A stretch of DNA of 23,234 bases, from the UHGV virus genome UHGV-0125203. One strand, 5' to 3'. Positions 13,428 to 20,495 of the stretch are shown here, one piece after another (position 1 is the first letter of the stretch; each line of letters opens with the position of its first letter). Source of the DNA: a virus. The position numbers were made by a program, and so were the translations under genes. The notes beneath the pieces are model-generated. The model saw nothing but the letters and a program-made list of their open reading frames with translations. It was not told the origin of the DNA and ran no database searches.

Positions 13428-15424
13428 TGGCTAAAGCATGGAAAGATGTTATCGCCTCTCCACAGTATCAGGCGTTAGCACCAGAACAAAAAGCGCAGGC
13501 TCAGGAGCAATACTTCAATGAAGTCGTGGCCCCGCAAGCCGGAGAAAATGCAGAGCAGGCTAAGCAAGCTTTCTATGCTGCCTATCCATTGCCATCTGTG
13601 CAGCAAGTGGAGACACAGCAACCAGTAGCACAGCAACAACCACAGCAAAGTGGATTTATGTCTGATCTTGGCGAAGCAGTAAAAGAGACTGGTCGCGGAA
13701 TTGTGCAGGCTGGCGTGAACGTGGCAAACATACCTGCATCAATTGCCGATGCTGTAACAAGCGCGGCGGCTTGGGCTGGCGGTAAACTCGGCATTGGCGA
13801 TGGTACATATCAACCAGCGCCACGAGTAACAACGCAGGGATTAGAGCAGGACTTTGGCCTTCAGCAAGGCGCGCTGACTCCACAAACGACAGAGGGCAGG
13901 GTATTTGCTGAGGCATTGCCTTACCTCACTCCTGCTGGCATTGAGAGAGCGGCGGCACAGGCACCAACACTTGCTAGTCGAATTGCTCAGGGGGCAACTC
14001 GCCTTCTCGCTGAAAACGCAGTTGGATCACTTGCTGCAAATAGTGCGAAAGATGATGCGGAAGCACTCGCCACCGATTTAGGCGTTGGTGTACTGGCTGG
14101 CGGTGCTATTAACGCTGCCGGACGTGGATTAGGTGCTGCTTATCGTGGCGTTCGTGGTGCTATCGCGCCAGAAGCGCAGCAGGCTATCAGATTTGCAGAG
14201 CGTGAAGGAGTTCCTCTGCACACCACAGACCTGTTACAACCAACTTCCCGCGTCGGGAAAATGGCGCAGACTACAGCAGAAAATATTCCTCTGGCTGGCA
14301 CAAGCGGAATGAGAGCAACGCAACAGGAAGCGAGAAGTCAGTTGGTGCAGAGATTTGCTGATAAATTCGGCGAGTACGATCCGGCAGTTGTTATTGACAG
14401 CCTTAAAGCGAAAACATCAGGAATTCGGCGTGCTGCAGGAAATCGACTGGAGCAGGTTCAGAATGCTATGGCGGGAATAAACATTCAGCCTGCAAGAGCA
14501 ATTCAGCAGATTGATACAGAAATATCTAACCTGCAGAAGCTTGGTAAGGTTGCTGATAACGAGACTATTTCAAAACTTCAGTCCTATCGTGATGAGCTTG
14601 TTCGCAATGCTGGTCCTGATGGTCCGGTAAATCTGGATTTGAAGCAATTAAGCGATCTGCGCAGCCAGTTCAGAATGGACGTGAAGGGGGAGCGACCAGT
14701 GTTACCAAACCGTTCCGATGCTGCCATTCAGCGCGTTTACAAGGCAATGACAGACGATATCAATGGTGCCATTGGTCAGAATCTTGGCAACGATACTCTC
14801 CGTAAATATCAGCAGGCCAATGCCGTCTACGCTGACGAAGCGGCGAAACTAAAGAATACCAGGCTGAAGAATGTTCTCATGAAAGGCGACCTGACGCCGG
14901 AAGTTGTCAACAACATGCTATTCAGCAAGAACAAATCGGAAATTAAGACGCTGTATAACTCAGTTGGTCGTGTTGGCAGGGCGCAAATGCGCAATGGCAT
15001 CATTGGAAAGGCGATGGAGAAATCAGGTGGTTCCCCTGACCAGTTCCTTCGACAGCTTAACATCCTGCAAAACCAGACTGGCATCACATTTAAAGGTCAG
15101 GAAGCCGCTTATCTGAAAGGATTAAAAAACTACCTGCAATCCACGCAGCAGGCTGCAAAAGCGGCAGTAACAACACCCACAGGGCAGCAAACTATCCCGT
15201 TCATTATTGGGTATGGGACGGCAATGAACCCGGCGACAACTGGCGCAGCAGTAAGCTACGGACTTCTTACTCGCGCCTATGAGAGCGAGCCATTCAGAAA
15301 TGCAATGCTCCGAATGGCAAACACCCCACGCGGATCAACAGCGTTTGAGAAAGCCATGCAGCAGGCACAAAAGGCAATTAACGCTCTGACGCAGGGGGCT
15401 AAGTCTGATGCGTTGTCAGAATAG
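13427..15424 (+). CDS. DNA ejection protein (P22 gp16-like)
   Basis: 665 aa, Ala/Gly/Gln-rich; last large gene of the ejection-protein block; start overlaps the gp20-like stop (TAATG). Confidence 0.75.
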   Translation: MAKAWKDVIASPQYQALAPEQKAQAQEQYFNEVVAPQAGENAEQAKQAFYAAYPLPSVQQVETQQPVAQQQPQQSGFMSDLGEAVKETGRGIVQAGVNVANIPASIADAVTSAAAWAGGKLGIGDGTYQPAPRVTTQGLEQDFGLQQGALTPQTTEGRVFAEALPYLTPAGIERAAAQAPTLASRIAQGATRLLAENAVGSLAANSAKDDAEALATDLGVGVLAGGAINAAGRGLGAAYRGVRGAIAPEAQQAIRFAEREGVPLHTTDLLQPTSRVGKMAQTTAENIPLAGTSGMRATQQEARSQLVQRFADKFGEYDPAVVIDSLKAKTSGIRRAAGNRLEQVQNAMAGINIQPARAIQQIDTEISNLQKLGKVADNETISKLQSYRDELVRNAGPDGPVNLDLKQLSDLRSQFRMDVKGERPVLPNRSDAAIQRVYKAMTDDINGAIGQNLGNDTLRKYQQANAVYADEAAKLKNTRLKNVLMKGDLTPEVVNNMLFSKNKSEIKTLYNSVGRVGRAQMRNGIIGKAMEKSGGSPDQFLRQLNILQNQTGITFKGQEAAYLKGLKNYLQSTQQAAKAAVTTPTGQQTIPFIIGYGTAMNPATTGAAVSYGLLTRAYESEPFRNAMLRMANTPRGSTAFEKAMQQAQKAINALTQGAKSDALSE

Positions 15425-15514
15425 CTTTGCAAACACCAGGAAAGTGCAAAAACCAAATATGTAGAACGCGAGGTTTATCGTATCCCTCTGCATAGGCGAT
15501 ACCTTTGCTGATTG

Positions 15515-16000
15515 TTATCTGATGTTACTGCTACTGTTGCATGTGACTGTATTTACAAACCCTGAATTGCAGTTTGTGTAAGTGTCAACGCGTGTTGGAT
15601 AGGGTTGAGTTATAACAGGCTGTCTCGCTTTTTGCTCGATCGCTTGCATTGTGTTTACAGCCTGATAATTCAATAAAGCCTGCTGGAATGCTTGGCTTTG
15701 CGCTATTTGTTGGGCTTGTTCTTGGCTTTGTAATTGAACATAAAGATTCTGAAGCTCAAGTCTTGCCTGTGCGTCACTTATCTTGCCTTCATCGACACTT
15801 TGCCCGAGCATCTTTGCAGCAAGGACATACAGCTTAGGTGTTGGTGCTGATGCCATGCGTGAGTCGTTCTTCACACTGGCATCAAGGCAATTAGCCATAT
15901 CGCTAAGCTTTGGATAGCGTTGTTCGCAACTTGCCTGATAGTCGCTAACCTTTGCACACCCTGCCAGCAGAAGCGGGATAATTAACAGTGATTTTTTCAT
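15515..16000 (-). CDS. Predicted lipoprotein (moron; candidate superinfection-exclusion or host-modulating protein)
   Basis: Minus-strand ORF; preferred start is the ATG at 16000 with AAGGAG 10 nt upstream, giving MKKSLLIIPLLLAGC (signal peptide with LAGC lipobox). Q-rich predicted helical region and six Cys. The track's longer 171-aa form starts at 16030. Confidence 0.7.
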   Translation of the reverse strand: MKKSLLIIPLLLAGCAKVSDYQASCEQRYPKLSDMANCLDASVKNDSRMASAPTPKLYVLAAKMLGQSVDEGKISDAQARLELQNLYVQLQSQEQAQQIAQSQAFQQALLNYQAVNTMQAIEQKARQPVITQPYPTRVDTYTNCNSGFVNTVTCNSSSNIR

Positions 16001-16134
16001 ATGATTAACTCTCCTTATCTTTGCCATCATGGCACTGTTGGGTGTAAATGAGTTATTAACTCAATCGACAATATCTTCACGAAAATACTTTTTATTATTA
16101 AGATCTTTCTGATTCTAACAAAACGGAAAGTAAT

Positions 16135-16554
16135 ATGAAGAGGATTATCGGCGTCGTTGCTGGCGCTATATTGTTATCTGGGTGCGCAACTATTGTTGGT
16201 GACGAAACACAGCTTGTGCAAGTGAACAGCAATCCTTCCGGTGCGAGCTTTAAGGTAAAAGACGAATCAGGCGTGATTGTTGCGCAAGGTAAGACCCCGC
16301 AAGGAGTAACTCTTGCCAAGTCAGATGGTAGTTATTTTGGCAAAAAGAGCTATCAGATCACTATGGAAAAGGATGGGTACGAGCCAGTAACCTTGCCAAT
16401 CAAAGCCAATGCTAATGGTTGGTATATTGGTGGAAACCTTGTGTTTGGTGGGTTAATTGGTTGGCTTGCTGTAGATCCATTTAATGGTGGGATGTATACC
16501 TTGAAGCCAAAAGAGGCAAACGCATCTCTTATACCATCAACAAAGCAAGACTAA
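16135..16554 (+). CDS. Predicted lipoprotein with PEGA-like beta-sandwich motif and Gly-rich hydrophobic C-terminal segment
   Basis: 139 aa; MKRIIGVVAGAILLSGC (signal peptide with LSGC lipobox); NPSGASFKV...GKTPQGV resembles a PEGA-type motif; GGNLVFGGLIGWLAVDPFNGG is Gly-zipper-like; followed by a strong terminator. Confidence 0.7.
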   Translation: MKRIIGVVAGAILLSGCATIVGDETQLVQVNSNPSGASFKVKDESGVIVAQGKTPQGVTLAKSDGSYFGKKSYQITMEKDGYEPVTLPIKANANGWYIGGNLVFGGLIGWLAVDPFNGGMYTLKPKEANASLIPSTKQD

Positions 16555-16562
16555 TAAATAGG

Positions 16563-16585
16563 ACCCACCTTCAGGTGGGTTTTTT
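16563..16585. terminator. Bidirectional intrinsic terminator between the lipoprotein gene and mnt
   Basis: Stem ACCCACC (16563-16569), loop TTCA, stem GGTGGGT (16574-16580), then T5 on the plus strand and a T-rich run on the minus strand; the mnt stop codon lies within the hairpin. Confidence 0.75.
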
Positions 16586-16822
16586 GTACAAATCCTTCAG
16601 CGTATCAAACACCATCTTCTTAACAAGCTCTGATTGCTCATCAGCGATGCGTTCCGCATCGTCTCGATAGCCTGAAATTTTGGATGGCTTTGATACAGCA
16701 TCAGTCACTATCTGAACTAATTCTGAATTAAGAGAGCGGCCATTGGATTTGGCTCGCTGTTTTAGTTTTTCCTTTAATTCGTAAGGTAGCCGCAGATTAA
16801 ATTGCGGGTCATCTCTTCCCAT
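16571..16822 (-). CDS. mnt: Mnt repressor (ribbon-helix-helix, P22 immI maintenance repressor homologue)
   Basis: 83 aa; MGRDDPQFNLRLPYELKEKLKQRAKSNGRSLNSELVQIVTDAVSKP...DAERIADEQSELVKKMVFDTLKDLYKK matches recalled P22 Mnt almost residue for residue. Confidence 0.9.
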   Translation of the reverse strand: MGRDDPQFNLRLPYELKEKLKQRAKSNGRSLNSELVQIVTDAVSKPSKISGYRDDAERIADEQSELVKKMVFDTLKDLYKKPT

Positions 16823-16885
16823 TCTTGATGCCTCGCTTTTGTGAGTGGATCGGCATCTTATTATCTGCTGGTTGCATCCTCAATA

Positions 16886-16900
16886 AGACCACAGTGGTCT
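16886..16900. promoter_or_regulatory. Mnt-operator-like 15-bp perfect palindrome AGACCACAGTGGTCT
   Basis: Perfect inverted repeat about 64 bp upstream of the mnt start and about 69 bp upstream of the tailspike ATG; resembles the recalled P22 Omnt core (..CCACGGTGG..). Confidence 0.6.
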
Positions 16901-16968
16901 CTTTGTTTGATTAATAATGCATCACTGTGGCAATGCTGCGGCGATTCCTTGTATCTGGAGCAAATTAA

Positions 16969-18405
16969 ATGACAGACATTACAGCTAATGTTGTAGTGAG
17001 TATGCCTTCGCAACTCTTCACTATGGCGCGTTCTTTTAAAGCCGTAGCCAATGGCAAAATTTATATCGGTAAAATTGACACTGACCCTGTAAATCCTGAA
17101 AACCGGATTCAGGTTTATGTAGAGAACGAAGACGGCTCTCACGTTCCTGTTGCACAGCCAATCATCATTAACGCTGCTGGATATCCGGTATATAACGGAC
17201 AGATTGCCAAATTCGTAACTGTGCAAGGCCATTCTATGGCTGTATATGATGCGTACGGTTCTCAGCAGTTCTATTTTCCGAATGTGCTGAAGTATGACCC
17301 GGATCAGTTAAGAGTAGTTTTGACTGGACAGTCTGGTGATGGACTTAATAATTTTTATGCTGGCTCAGGATGGACTGGTTCAGATGCAGCTGGTGACAAT
17401 ATTTATAACAATGAAACTATCATATATAAAAATGCTACACGACAGAGATTCTCCATACCAGAAACACCAATTCCAGATCCCATTATTTGGCTGGAAAAAA
17501 TTAGTTCTGCAACTAGGGATGACGGCATCAAACGATGGGATCAGGGGGTAATTTATAACTCTTTGCGCAAGGTGTCAGGAAGTGCATATACATGCACAAC
17601 TACAAGTGTTGCTAAGCATGAGGGCGGGAATGGGCATTCAATTGGTCACCACATGCGTGGAGAATCAAGAAATCCGCAAGCCGAAACATGGGGGGGGTGG
17701 TCATATGGTGCAGTATTAGGAGATGCAGTGCAGAATGGAGCGATTAGCACTATTGCACATGAATTTAATCTGAATAATCGAGGTCCCGATAAAGGATGGA
17801 TGGAGAATACACTGCAAGGATCTGTAAGAGGGTTGGTATGTGTAACTCAGGATAAAAGCAATCCAGTAACACAGATGATTACCATCGGAAGAGGGAGTAA
17901 AGCTCCAAATGGTTATATCTGGACAGGAATGTTGTTTAGAGGTAATTCTATTTCCACTCCAACAGAGGAACTAACCGAGGTAGGTAATGGCGAATACATC
18001 AGACTTGAGGGATCTCTATCATCTAGAGCTGCAAACGGCATTAGATTTAGAACAAATTATTTTAGGAGTGGAATTTCATTTTCTGAAGCTGGATTTTCAA
18101 ACAACTGCGCAATTTTGATGGGCGACAATCAACGAATTACGGTAGGAACGGGCCCGGCAAATACAACACATTTGAGTTTCAACAGGTCTGAAAACTGGGC
18201 TAACTTCAACAACTTAAGAATACGACTTAATGGCAATCAAGTTATTTCAGAGAGGAGGACGGGATGGGGATCGCCAACCGGCACCGTATCCCGAGCAGCA
18301 TTTAACTCTGGAACAATAACTCACGAAGATTTAGCAAAGGTGGTTGCAGCATTAATTCAGGACTTACATGCTTCAACCGGGCATGGATTAATTGGTTTAA
18401 CTTAA
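16969..18405 (+). CDS. Tailspike protein: P22 gp9-type head-binding domain fused to a divergent receptor-binding domain
   Basis: Residues 1 to about 113 ([13 protein letters not shown]...NVLKYDPDQ) match the recalled P22 gp9 N-terminal domain; the remaining ~365 aa are unrelated to the P22 beta-helix and are encoded by visibly AT-rich DNA. Total 478 aa, shorter than P22/Sf6/HK620 tailspikes. GGAG RBS. Confidence 0.85.
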
Positions 18406-18417
18406 CAGGACAATAAA

Positions 18418-18603
18418 ATGGATAAGCAAACTATTCAAAATATCATGCAGTTTATGCTTCGCGTAAATCTTAGCGGTCATGAAGTTCCTGCTTTTAATTC
18501 TTCAATGAATGCATTACAGGCTGAATTAGATCGCGAAAATGACCAGCCACTCCAGCGAGTACTAAATGCTGCTCACAATGAACCTGTTACGGAGAATGAT
18601 TAA
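18418..18603 (+). CDS. Hypothetical small protein linked to the tailspike
   Basis: 61-aa ORF starting 12 nt after the tailspike stop with AGGA RBS; same AT-rich composition as the tailspike C-terminal domain. No family recognised. Confidence 0.45.
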   Translation: MDKQTIQNIMQFMLRVNLSGHEVPAFNSSMNALQAELDRENDQPLQRVLNAAHNEPVTEND

Positions 18604-19101
18604 AATGAAAACAGAAAGCGGTGCTTTCAAATTTGACGGTGGAGAGGTTAAATGAATTAACAGCATTGCCATTATTGAAGTGCGCGGTAACGGGTGGGGC
18701 GCTGGTTTTTATTTTAAGCCAAATACTGCCGTTAAAGTCGATGGTAATAAGCCTGATCTGAACGAGTTTCGTGATTCCTGCGCATTGTCGGTAATGACTC
18801 CAACTTACTGATAGTGTTTTATGTTCAGATAATGCCCGATGACTTTGTCATGCAACTCCACCGATTTTGAGAACGACAGCGACTTCCGTCCCAGCCGTGC
18901 ACCAGGCTGGTTCAGAATCAGGTTCTGCTGATTTTGTCCGGCGGCAGAACGCAATTTGCCAGAGTGATGGGAAGGGCATTAATCACGGATGATGGTGAAG
19001 CGATCGAAGTGGAGGCGGCGGAAGAGGTGGAGGTGATGGGGCGTGTTACGTACTTCATCAACAGCGCGCTGCAGGATGGCGTGGTGGTGTGATGGGTGGC
19101 A

Positions 19102-20259
19102 TTACTCCACCTTTTCATCAATCCAATCTGCCCACCACTGCATCATTTCTCTGCGCTTATCGAGATACTGTGCATGGTTGTAAATCCCACGCACAGATCC
19201 GCCGTTGGCATGTGCCAGTTGCACTTCAATGGCGTCGGCAGGCCATTCGTGCTCGTTCATAATCGTGCTGAATTCATGCCTGAATCCGTGACCGCTTTCC
19301 AGACCTTCATAGCCGATTTGTTTAATCACAAGCAGTACCGCGTTCTCGCAGATTGGCTTCTTCTTATCGTTGCGCCCGGCAAAAACAAACTCTGATACTG
19401 GTTTGGTGATTGAGCTTAGCGTAGTGAGAAGTTCAACCACCTGGTCTGACATCGGCACTACATGAATCTTGCGGCCCTTCATCACACTGGCGTCGATGGT
19501 GATAATCCTGTTTTCAAAATCGACGTTCTTCCATAGCATGGAACGAAGCTCTTTCGTTCTTAGGGCTGTGTAGCGTAAAACCTTGGTGGCAATGAGCGAT
19601 ACGATACTTCCTGAAAATGTTGCCAGTGCTTTGTTAAATGCCGTGATCTGGTCTGCAGGAAGAAACGGGAAGTTCTTCTTGCGGTATCCCTTCATGGCGT
19701 CAGCAAGGTCAGGTGCTGGGTTATATTTAGCCCTGCCGGTGACAATAGCGTAACGGAAAACCTCTCCGCATCTTCTGCGGGCTTTATTGGCTCTCTCCAT
19801 TGCCCCGCGCTCTTCAAATCTGCGGATTACTTCCAGCAGTTGCATCGGCTCAATATCTTGAATTTCAAGGCCGCCGATGATAGGTAAAATGTCGTCATCA
19901 AACATTCTGGCAAGTTCAGTAGCATAACCTACAGACCAGACTTGCTTCTTGTGCTCGTACCATTCCTTGTAAATGGCGCTAAAGGAATTGTTGTTAGACG
20001 AAGCCTTTTTTGCTTTTACCGGATCGATGCCAACCGAGATGTCTTTCCTCGCAGTCCATGCTTTATCCCTTGCCTCCTGCAAAGTCATAAGCGGATATTT
20101 TCCGACGGTCAGGATTTTCTCCTTACCGTCAATCTTGTAGCGAAGCTGCCATACCTTTTTCCCTGATACAGGGACATAAAGGTACAGGCCATTACCATCG
20201 AGAAGGCGGTATGGTTTTTCTTTCGGCTTTGCTGCTTCAATCTGCTTAACGGTGAGCAT
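19102..20259 (-). CDS. intS: Tyrosine integrase, P4 type (IntS-like)
   Basis: Sequence from MLTVKQIEAAKPKEKPYRLLDGNGLYLYVPVSGKKVWQLRYK... onward matches recalled E. coli CPS-53/KpLE1 IntS; 5' end lies about 160 bp from the tRNA-Arg gene. The track ORF starts at a GTG at 20295; ATG at 20259 is preferred. Confidence 0.92.
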   Translation of the reverse strand: MLTVKQIEAAKPKEKPYRLLDGNGLYLYVPVSGKKVWQLRYKIDGKEKILTVGKYPLMTLQEARDKAWTARKDISVGIDPVKAKKASSNNNSFSAIYKEWYEHKKQVWSVGYATELARMFDDDILPIIGGLEIQDIEPMQLLEVIRRFEERGAMERANKARRRCGEVFRYAIVTGRAKYNPAPDLADAMKGYRKKNFPFLPADQITAFNKALATFSGSIVSLIATKVLRYTALRTKELRSMLWKNVDFENRIITIDASVMKGRKIHVVPMSDQVVELLTTLSSITKPVSEFVFAGRNDKKKPICENAVLLVIKQIGYEGLESGHGFRHEFSTIMNEHEWPADAIEVQLAHANGGSVRGIYNHAQYLDKRREMMQWWADWIDEKVE

Positions 20260-20420
20260 GGGTAAAAATCCGGTGGGTAAAATTATTTTATCCACTTTTT
20301 ACCCGTCATGGAGTGCGGCTGTCAACGATCTGACGCGAACCATTACGAACTGTGCATCTACAGAAGGCTTGATATTCAGGGGATTTTGCGGACTGGTACG
20401 GATGGGAGCGAACTGATAAA

Positions 20421-20495
20421 TGGTGTCCCCTGCAGGAATCGAACCTGCAATTAGCCCTTAGGAGGGGCTCGTTATATCCATTTAACTAAGAGGAC
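20421..20495 (-). tRNA. argW: tRNA-Arg (CCU anticodon; argW-type), prophage attachment site
   Basis: Reverse complement reads GTCCTCTTAGTTAAATGGATATAACGAGCCCCTCCTAAGGGCTAATTGCAGGTTCGATTCCTGCAGGGGACACCA (75 nt), with anticodon-loop CUCCUAA, T-loop GGTTCGATTCC and 3' CCA. Confidence 0.93.

Follow-up and report, generated by a model that had tools for sequence, protein, structure and literature searches.

P22-like phages that keep the repressor gene mnt between their injection genes and the tailspike, but lack arc and ant, are already known and common, and comparative maps of these phages have shown the arrangement since 2008. Villafane et al. 2008, who coined the term "ant moron," described ST64T, ST104, and Para1 as having only mnt and one unknown gene at this position (PMC2629481), and in the phage L paper the mnt-like gene was considered either to have another function or to be a remnant (PMC8022706, Zaworski et al. 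2020). An identical locus occurs in Gally, a prophage of Escherichia coli LF82 for which transcriptome sequencing (RNA-seq) in five conditions has been published (Misson et al. 2023, PMC9928086). Here, we analyzed the mnt-tailspike locus of the UHGV virus genome UHGV-0125203, a stretch of 23,234 nucleotides (referred to as the window) that comprises the late half and right end of a P22-like (Lederbergvirus) E. coli prophage at a tRNA-Arg gene. The locus is likely a reduced immI region, that is, an mnt-only "ant moron" in which Mnt autoregulates its own gene while the tailspike is fed by late read-through.

The mnt gene on the minus strand, the 146-bp gap, the tailspike start at 16969, and the palindrome in the gap all lie exactly where a preliminary description of this DNA had placed them. 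The locus is composed of the following elements.

16561-16585, both strands: bidirectional intrinsic terminator; on the plus strand a 9-bp G+C-rich stem followed by U6, on the minus strand with the mnt stop codon in the loop.
16571-16822, minus strand: mnt, 83 amino acids (aa), with an N-terminal ribbon-helix-helix and a C-terminal Mnt tetramerization domain; "Q6" class (MGRDDPQFNLRLPY).
16831-16834, minus strand: putative Shine-Dalgarno sequence GAGG of mnt, 8 nt before the ATG, read from the sequence.
16850-16878, plus strand: decayed equivalent of P22 Pant, with TCGGCA (16850-16855) at the -35 and TGCATC (16873-16878) at the -10 position; by-eye alignment anchored on CTCAATA.
16855-16883, minus strand: predicted leftward mnt promoter, -35 TTGAGG (16883-16878), 17-nt spacer, -10 TAAGAT (16860-16855).
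16886-16900: Omnt-homologous operator, AGACCAC-A-GTGGTCT (AGACCACAGTGGTCT), a perfect 15-bp palindrome assigned by P22 register and conservation; its conserved core GACCAC-N-GTGGTC spans 16887-16899.
16901-16936: variable junction segment, T-rich here, at the site of arc-sar-ant-t_ant in P22-type phages.
16937-16968, plus strand: "boundary" sequence with the Shine-Dalgarno sequence GGAG (16957-16960), homologous to the P22 DNA just before gene 9.
16969-18405, plus strand: tailspike, 478 aa, of which residues 1 to 113 form a P22-type head-binding domain (Pfam Head_binding, 1.6e-66).

In the P22 record, Omnt lies at 14822-14844, directly after the -35 element of Pmnt; when the two sequences are aligned on the shared CTCAATA, P22 ATAGGTCCACGGTGGACCTGT and window ATAAGACCACAGTGGTCTCTT fall in one register, so that the palindrome does sit where Omnt would be expected, as first suggested. 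It begins 2 nt from the -35 element of the mnt promoter and is centered at about -45. P22 Omnt reads AGGTCCAC-G-GTGGACCT, and the window operator differs from it symmetrically, with T:A replaced by A:T and G:C by A:T in both half-sites. For comparison, we collected 80 IMG/VR loci with a window-type Mnt. The motif GACCAC-N-GTGGTC is centered 70 nt from the mnt ATG in every Gln6-class locus (65/65), and GGTCCAC-N-GTGGACC occurs at offset 65 in 14 of 19 His6-class loci; the other five His6 loci, which are CUS-3-like (L070-L073, L089), contain no such site within the scanned interval. Across 31 distinct Gln6-class intergenic sequences, the operator arms are 98 to 99% conserved and the center base (position 16893 in the window) is free (A8/C4/G10/T9), a striking scrambling at a single position that fits an uncontacted operator center. 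In P22-type operators, the center is likewise G or C. Substitutions in the arms are rare and never compensated, which fits a protein-binding site rather than an RNA hairpin. The distance from operator to mnt is fixed at offset 70, and the gap to the tailspike start varies (135, 146, or 147 bp). The operator occurs once in the window and once in the complete Gally genome, and neither has a second copy even when up to three mismatches are allowed. Because of its position in the P22 register and its conservation, we judge the palindrome to be real and regard it as a true Omnt homologue whose half-site tracks the Mnt class.

The perfection of the palindrome was dropped as evidence in itself, since the number of palindromes with arms of at least 7 in the window (three) equals the expectation from shuffled sequences (3.05), although the chance of finding one within the 146-bp gap is about 0.02; register and conservation were used instead. 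A collection-wide scan for the operator motif was judged uninformative, as about 150 chance matches are expected in IMG/VR for 14 specified bases.

The repressor itself belongs unambiguously to the Mnt family. Its N-terminal domain matches Pfam Arc (PF03869, 2.8e-22, residues 3 to 50) and PDB entry 1MNT (2.8e-34), and its C-terminal domain matches Repressor_Mnt (PF11423, 2.2e-18, residues 53 to 80) and 1QEY (3.1e-12). It is 100% identical to Gally Mnt, 92% to that of ST160, and 76% to that of P22; the preliminary description had called it near-identical to P22 Mnt, which does not hold. The differences fall mostly in the N-terminal DNA-binding half, and the C-terminal half is almost the same. 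The recognition strand reads MGRDDPQFNLRLPY in the window versus MARDDPHFNFRMPM in P22, corresponding to a His6-to-Gln replacement. Knight and Sauer reportedly identified Arg2, His6, Asn8, and Arg10 as the β-strand contact residues of Mnt. Compared with P22, Arg, Asn, and Arg are kept at positions 2, 8, and 10, and His6 is replaced by Gln. We presume that residue 6 pairs with a particular operator position. According to one secondary statement, a one-residue change in Mnt is reported to shift the preferred site (PMC1184061).

Selection has maintained this orphan gene. Between the window mnt and that of ST160, representing E. coli and Salmonella orphans, the ratio of nonsynonymous to synonymous substitution rates (dN/dS) is 0.088, with 22 synonymous and 9 nonsynonymous differences, and Q6-class mnt genes are intact throughout the sample (67/67). 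The promoter, Shine-Dalgarno sequence, and operator of mnt are also far better conserved than the neighboring junction DNA: block 16823-16854 is 96% conserved, whereas the junction 16901-16936 has a mean conservation of 75% and only 2 of 36 invariant positions, with gap lengths of 135, 146, and 147 bp. We take these values to indicate purifying selection on a functional gene; since mnt is kept by selection, Mnt has a function.

Promoters were scored with a position weight matrix (PWM) of hexamer frequencies, and the scores are only relative; as controls, P22 Pant scored 15.5 and P22 Pmnt 13.1. Prediction on both strands gave a single strong site in the gap, the leftward mnt promoter (10.5, top 0.003% of the window), and no convincing rightward one. 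The leftward site is positionally homologous to P22 Pmnt (TTGAGA-17-TATCAT), and the equivalent position scores 9.3 in ST160 and 8.0 in IME10; the mnt promoter thus seems to have been kept and is presumably active. The best rightward site in the gap reaches an unremarkable 4.9, a score that is common in the window (0.15% of positions). The Pant hexamers TTGACA/TATATT of P22 have become TCGGCA/TGCATC in the window, and in the Salmonella relatives the Pant -10 position reads TGTATC or TATATC, resembling P22 TATATT minus the final T. The consensus scan found no sigma-70 promoter in the gap, and the decayed Pant position was recovered by neither of two scans; by these predictions, the gap holds no credible rightward promoter and the Pant equivalent has decayed.

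The genes that Pant serves in P22 are likewise missing. Searches with P22 Arc and Ant by tblastn and with sar by blastn gave no match in the window or in the complete Gally genome, save for the ribbon-helix-helix domain of Mnt itself, which upholds the initial statement that arc and ant are absent; no Rfam match to sar above the gathering threshold was obtained in the window. In a related full prophage of strain EF5-18-41, which has the same tRNA site, the same tailspike, and an orphan mnt, no arc or ant is annotated anywhere. The features of a complete P22-type immI, namely, arc and ant downstream of the operator, a strong Pant overlapped by Omnt, and sar, are thus lacking, and the locus has the makeup of an mnt-only "ant moron": it is situated within the late operon, after the last injection gene and before the tailspike, and has mnt without arc and ant. 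No Q6- or IME10-class Mnt adjoins arc or ant in about 140 IMG/VR loci, sets that are biased to close relatives of the queries, or in the GenBank phages inspected.

We propose that a Gln6-class Mnt tetramer would bind GACCAC-N-GTGGTC just upstream of its own -35 element, the half-site having shifted symmetrically alongside the Mnt class, from GTCCAC in P22 to GACCAC in the window. Because Pant is gone, its own promoter region would be the only cis target of Mnt. The tailspike would have no Mnt-controlled promoter and would most likely be reached, as in P22, by antiterminated late transcription, which would cross the terminator at 16561-16585 and run antisense over mnt. For P22 gene 9, dependence on antiterminated late transcription is established, as reported by Berget, Poteete, and Sauer in 1983. 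This dependence is consistent with a remark of Villafane et al. on late transcription (PMC2629481). The terminator, strong on the plus strand (-14.5 kcal/mol on the plus strand and -12.0 on the minus strand, where it is also recovered by the terminator scan), has an annotated counterpart at the equivalent place in phage epsilon34; it ends both the plus-strand gene at 16135-16554 and mnt, and antiterminated late transcription must read through it. Bound Mnt or convergent mnt transcription could at most modulate the flow toward the tailspike; Mnt may exert a partial roadblock effect, but it probably does not switch the tailspike on or off.

The published Gally data allow this model to be compared with expression in a prophage. 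The values below are log2(fpkm+5), where fpkm denotes fragments per kilobase per million mapped reads, in lysogeny broth (LB) stationary phase, medium at 1 h and 6 h, and macrophages (Mac) at 1 h and 6 h (PMC9928086).

Last injection gene: LB 3.8, 1 h 3.7, 6 h 3.6, Mac 1 h 4.0, Mac 6 h 4.1.
Homologue of 16135-16554: LB 5.5, 1 h 10.0, 6 h 10.4, Mac 1 h 11.0, Mac 6 h 9.4.
mnt: LB 3.7, 1 h 5.7, 6 h 7.0, Mac 1 h 9.0, Mac 6 h 8.4.
Tailspike: LB 3.9, 1 h 4.9, 6 h 5.65, Mac 1 h 6.7, Mac 6 h 7.8.

Gally mnt is at background in LB and 40-fold up in macrophages, with the tailspike rising about 20-fold alongside and the late genes staying at background (PMC9928086). The positive correlation between mnt and tailspike mRNAs argues against tight repression of the tailspike by Mnt. 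A Gally lysogen deleted for mnt is viable and shows normal survival in macrophages (PMC9928086); because of this viability, Mnt is not the maintenance repressor of lysogeny, as expected for a phage without ant.

Several observations weigh against autoregulation with late read-through as a full account. The tailspike is transcribed in the Gally prophage (3.9 to 7.8) while the injection gene stays at 3.6 to 4.1; since the tailspike rises with a silent late operon, some rightward transcription must reach it by a route other than the late promoter. Such transcription could stem from the homologue of 16135-16554 by read-through or from a nonconsensus promoter in the gap. The ratio of tailspike mRNA to that of this upstream gene, calculated from the published values, ranges from 0.02 to 0.31 over the conditions, a range that constant leakage through the 16561-16585 terminator does not fully explain. 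The promoter calls are consensus-based, and the early half of the prophage lies beyond the window. In addition, a purely autoregulatory loop would not survive selection, implying that a further output of Mnt is missing from the account; as candidates, we rank a modest roadblock or interference on read-in first and trans immunity against relatives with the same operator second.

The preliminary description had predicted that Mnt gates read-in transcription of the tailspike. In such a model, Mnt would act at the operator on a weak residual promoter or as a polymerase roadblock, and the tailspike would be low in the lysogen and released lytically. The operator does lie between every upstream source of rightward transcription and the tailspike, the Gally prophage transcribes the tailspike without the late genes and so offers something to gate, and Villafane et al. 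noted that late transcription passing through the moron to the tailspike may be affected by Mnt and Arc (PMC2629481). A weak -10-like TATTAT (16859-16864; TATGAT in ST160) with a poor -35 would even put the operator at about +15 to +30. However, this rightward candidate scores only 4.9 and overlaps the -10 element of mnt, so that it is not independently conserved; the hexamers of Pant have degenerated, the operator keeps its distance from mnt and not from the tailspike, and the two mRNAs correlate positively over the five Gally conditions. We therefore regard gating as unlikely and as unsupported by the promoter analysis and the available expression data. Somewhat less probable still is that prophage Mnt, or the leftward mnt transcript, provides trans immunity against superinfecting relatives with the same operator or sequence, either by repressing an incoming antirepressor promoter or by disturbing the incoming late transcript before the tailspike, in which case the split into specificity classes would represent diversification of immunity types. 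At least three repressor/operator classes (H6, Q6, and IME10 type) are exchanged as cassettes at one position, which is typical of immunity modules; purifying selection is strong without any cis target gene, mnt is 40-fold inducible in the prophage state, and an antisense RNA over the 5' end of the tailspike, expressed in the BTP1 lysogen, confers BTP1 immunity (PMC7067206). Set against this, mnt mRNA does not rise above background in stationary LB cultures, and no Q6- or IME10-type operator precedes arc and ant among the roughly 140 IMG/VR loci or the GenBank phages inspected.

Two other explanations were weighed. That the palindrome forms an RNA hairpin serving as a weak terminator or attenuator before the tailspike, rather than a protein site, is very improbable: the terminator scan does report a terminator-like structure here (6-bp stem, then CTTTGTTTGA; fold energy -8.7 kcal/mol), and a T-rich tract follows it in several variants, but the fold z-score is only -1.9, the Salmonella variants have no T tract, arm substitutions go uncompensated, and the site shares the register of an operator defined by biochemistry and varies with the repressor class. 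Least credible of all is that mnt and palindrome are the nonfunctional, decaying remnant of an immI region from which arc and ant were deleted. Mnt has indeed lost its target promoter and its target gene, the delta-mnt lysogen had no phenotype in the single assay done, and the possibility was raised by the phage L authors (PMC8022706); yet the selection signature largely refutes it, with a dN/dS of 0.088, full-length genes in 67 of 67 cases, operator arms and mnt promoter 93 to 99% conserved versus 75% in the adjacent 36 bp, and persistence of the layout over E. coli, Shigella, and Salmonella phages and three Mnt classes.

Reduced immI with an autoregulated mnt and late read-through into the tailspike is thus the reading that we prefer. 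As an observation, the orphan mnt locus adds little, since the identical locus, a delta-mnt mutant, and RNA-seq have been published for Gally. Of modest interest is that Mnt and its operator have stayed intact and under selection in many P22-like phages of E. coli, Shigella, and Salmonella in which the antirepressor is missing. The division of natural Mnt proteins into His6 and Gln6 classes, each with its symmetrically altered operator, is an evolutionary counterpart of the classic genetics of Mnt specificity changes and could serve to test recognition rules. A bolder idea, to which we give little credence, is that the Mnt/operator cassette is a conserved, specificity-diversified control point on tailspike supply, at which resident Mnt or the convergent mnt transcript throttles late read-through in any genome with the same operator. 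If so, the tailspike would be limited in the prophage state and superinfecting relatives would be starved of tailspikes, and the exchange of at least three Mnt/operator classes at this position without an antirepressor would be accounted for by conflict between phages.

The same layout is found in Gally, vB_EcoP-720R6, ST160, SE1, and SW-70, as well as in ST64T, IME10, Sf101, and VSe13. The exact mnt-tailspike junction of the window is carried by 86 of 5,426 complete E. coli genomes, and the IMG/VR loci with the orphan layout number about 65 for the Q6 class plus 72 for the IME10 class, about 140 in all. The third Mnt class (MYSKYDEAQFHLRLP), found in IME10, Sf101, and VSe13 (L087, L088, L090, L091-L170), is also an orphan adjoining the tailspike, which lies 121 or 135 bp away in at least 72 of 78 IMG/VR loci. 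Its gap contains two dyads, TACC-N5-GGTA at the Omnt register and GCAATCA-N5-TGRTTGC about 15 bp further right, either of which is a candidate operator. E. coli CFSAN061770 (L171 509-2120) has the same tRNA-Arg site and the same tailspike with a full His6-type mnt-arc-ant set, and a Rap1a/Tai-family immunity gene lies downstream of mnt in this prophage; the mnt-only and mnt-arc-ant forms are swapped by recombination at the boundary sequence before the tailspike. In CUS-3 (L089 1980-2509), two mnt-like genes stand in tandem, a divergent one and one of the His6 type; they are preceded on the opposite strand by a putative antirepressor gene, and arc is absent.

The boundary segment is 95% conserved and is annotated in CUS-3 as "bsq1 boundary sequence." In P22 (L004 16041-16190), two copies of the boundary motif ACCGTAGCCAYGCT flank about 110 bp of DNA located after the ant terminator and before gene 9, and the same insert of about 110 bp stands behind an IME10-class orphan mnt in L158, which points to a small mobile or recombination-prone segment. 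Beyond the head-binding domain, the receptor-binding part of the window tailspike (17310-18405) has no Pfam or PDB sequence match. The identical 478-aa open reading frame occurs in two IMG/VR loci (L010, L018), and in the two related genomes inspected the RefSeq annotation covers only the head-binding part, which is labeled incomplete; the short tailspike could be an uncharacterized receptor-binding module or a degraded gene.

The remaining features of the prophage in the window are as follows.

162-722: Rha-family gene, the exact positional counterpart of P22 rha.
15515-16030, minus strand: moron gene.
16135-16554, plus strand: moron gene, ending at the 16561-16585 terminator.
19102-20295, minus strand: integrase, IntS in the annotation of related genomes.
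20424-20495, minus strand: tRNA, tRNA-Arg according to related genomes and the sole Rfam match in the window.
After the tRNA: host genes of the yfdC and mlaA families.

The Rha-family gene had been proposed as possibly the only antirepressor-like function in the window; because P22 carries both ant and, in this very place, rha, the gene does not stand in for Ant. At 16049-16063, in the DNA that separates the two divergent moron genes, there is another perfect 15-bp palindrome, TGAGTTATTAACTCA, which may be an operator for another regulator. The Gally homologues of these divergent genes are the most strongly macrophage-induced genes of that prophage. The G+C content is 0.39 to 0.46 over the moron, mnt, and tailspike region (15300-18900), compared with 0.47 to 0.55 for the structural genes on its left side. 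From this difference and from the way in which the divergent Gally genes are induced in concert, we speculate that the whole block is silenced by a nucleoid protein such as H-NS. The interval between tailspike and integrase contains an IS1 remnant (about 18532-18892) that matches thousands of E. coli records and is annotated as a partial IS1 transposase in related genomes.

Among known systems, Gally (OV696608) is closest: its Mnt (GALLYPH_15) is 100% identical to that of the window, the intergenic DNA including the operator is identical, with 98% identity over 801 bp, and the flanking morons and terminator are the same. The two differ in the tailspike (GALLYPH_16), which has 799 aa in Gally versus 478 aa in the window and a different receptor-binding part, and in integration, next to torT in LF82 versus at tRNA-Arg beside yfdC. 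In the Salmonella phages ST64T/L, ST104, SE1, and ST160, mnt diverges from gene 9 without arc and ant, as in the window (PMC2629481, PMC8022706); these mnt-only phages share the Q6 N-terminal DNA-binding sequence, GACCAC-N-GTGGTC, and the position of the mnt promoter, whereas their gap is 135 bp instead of 146 bp and their neighboring morons differ. ST160 and SE1 Mnt are 92% identical to window Mnt, and ST64T/L Mnt has a different C-terminal half. With P22 immI (mnt, Pmnt/Oarc/Pant/Omnt, arc, sar, ant, t_ant), the window has in common Mnt, the operator register, the mnt promoter, and the boundary before gene 9; it lacks arc, Oarc function, sar, ant, and t_ant, its Pant is decayed, and its Mnt recognition strand (His6 to Gln and others) and operator half-site (two symmetric positions) are different. 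A further parallel is STnc6030 of BTP1, a leftward lysogen transcript at the junction of injection genes and tailspike whose target is the late transcript (Owen et al. 2020, PMC7067206). STnc6030 is noncoding and overlaps the 5' end of the tailspike, whereas the leftward transcript of the window encodes Mnt and would start upstream of the tailspike; an antisense role for it is speculation. The BTP1 case shows that leftward transcripts expressed in the lysogen at this junction can matter.

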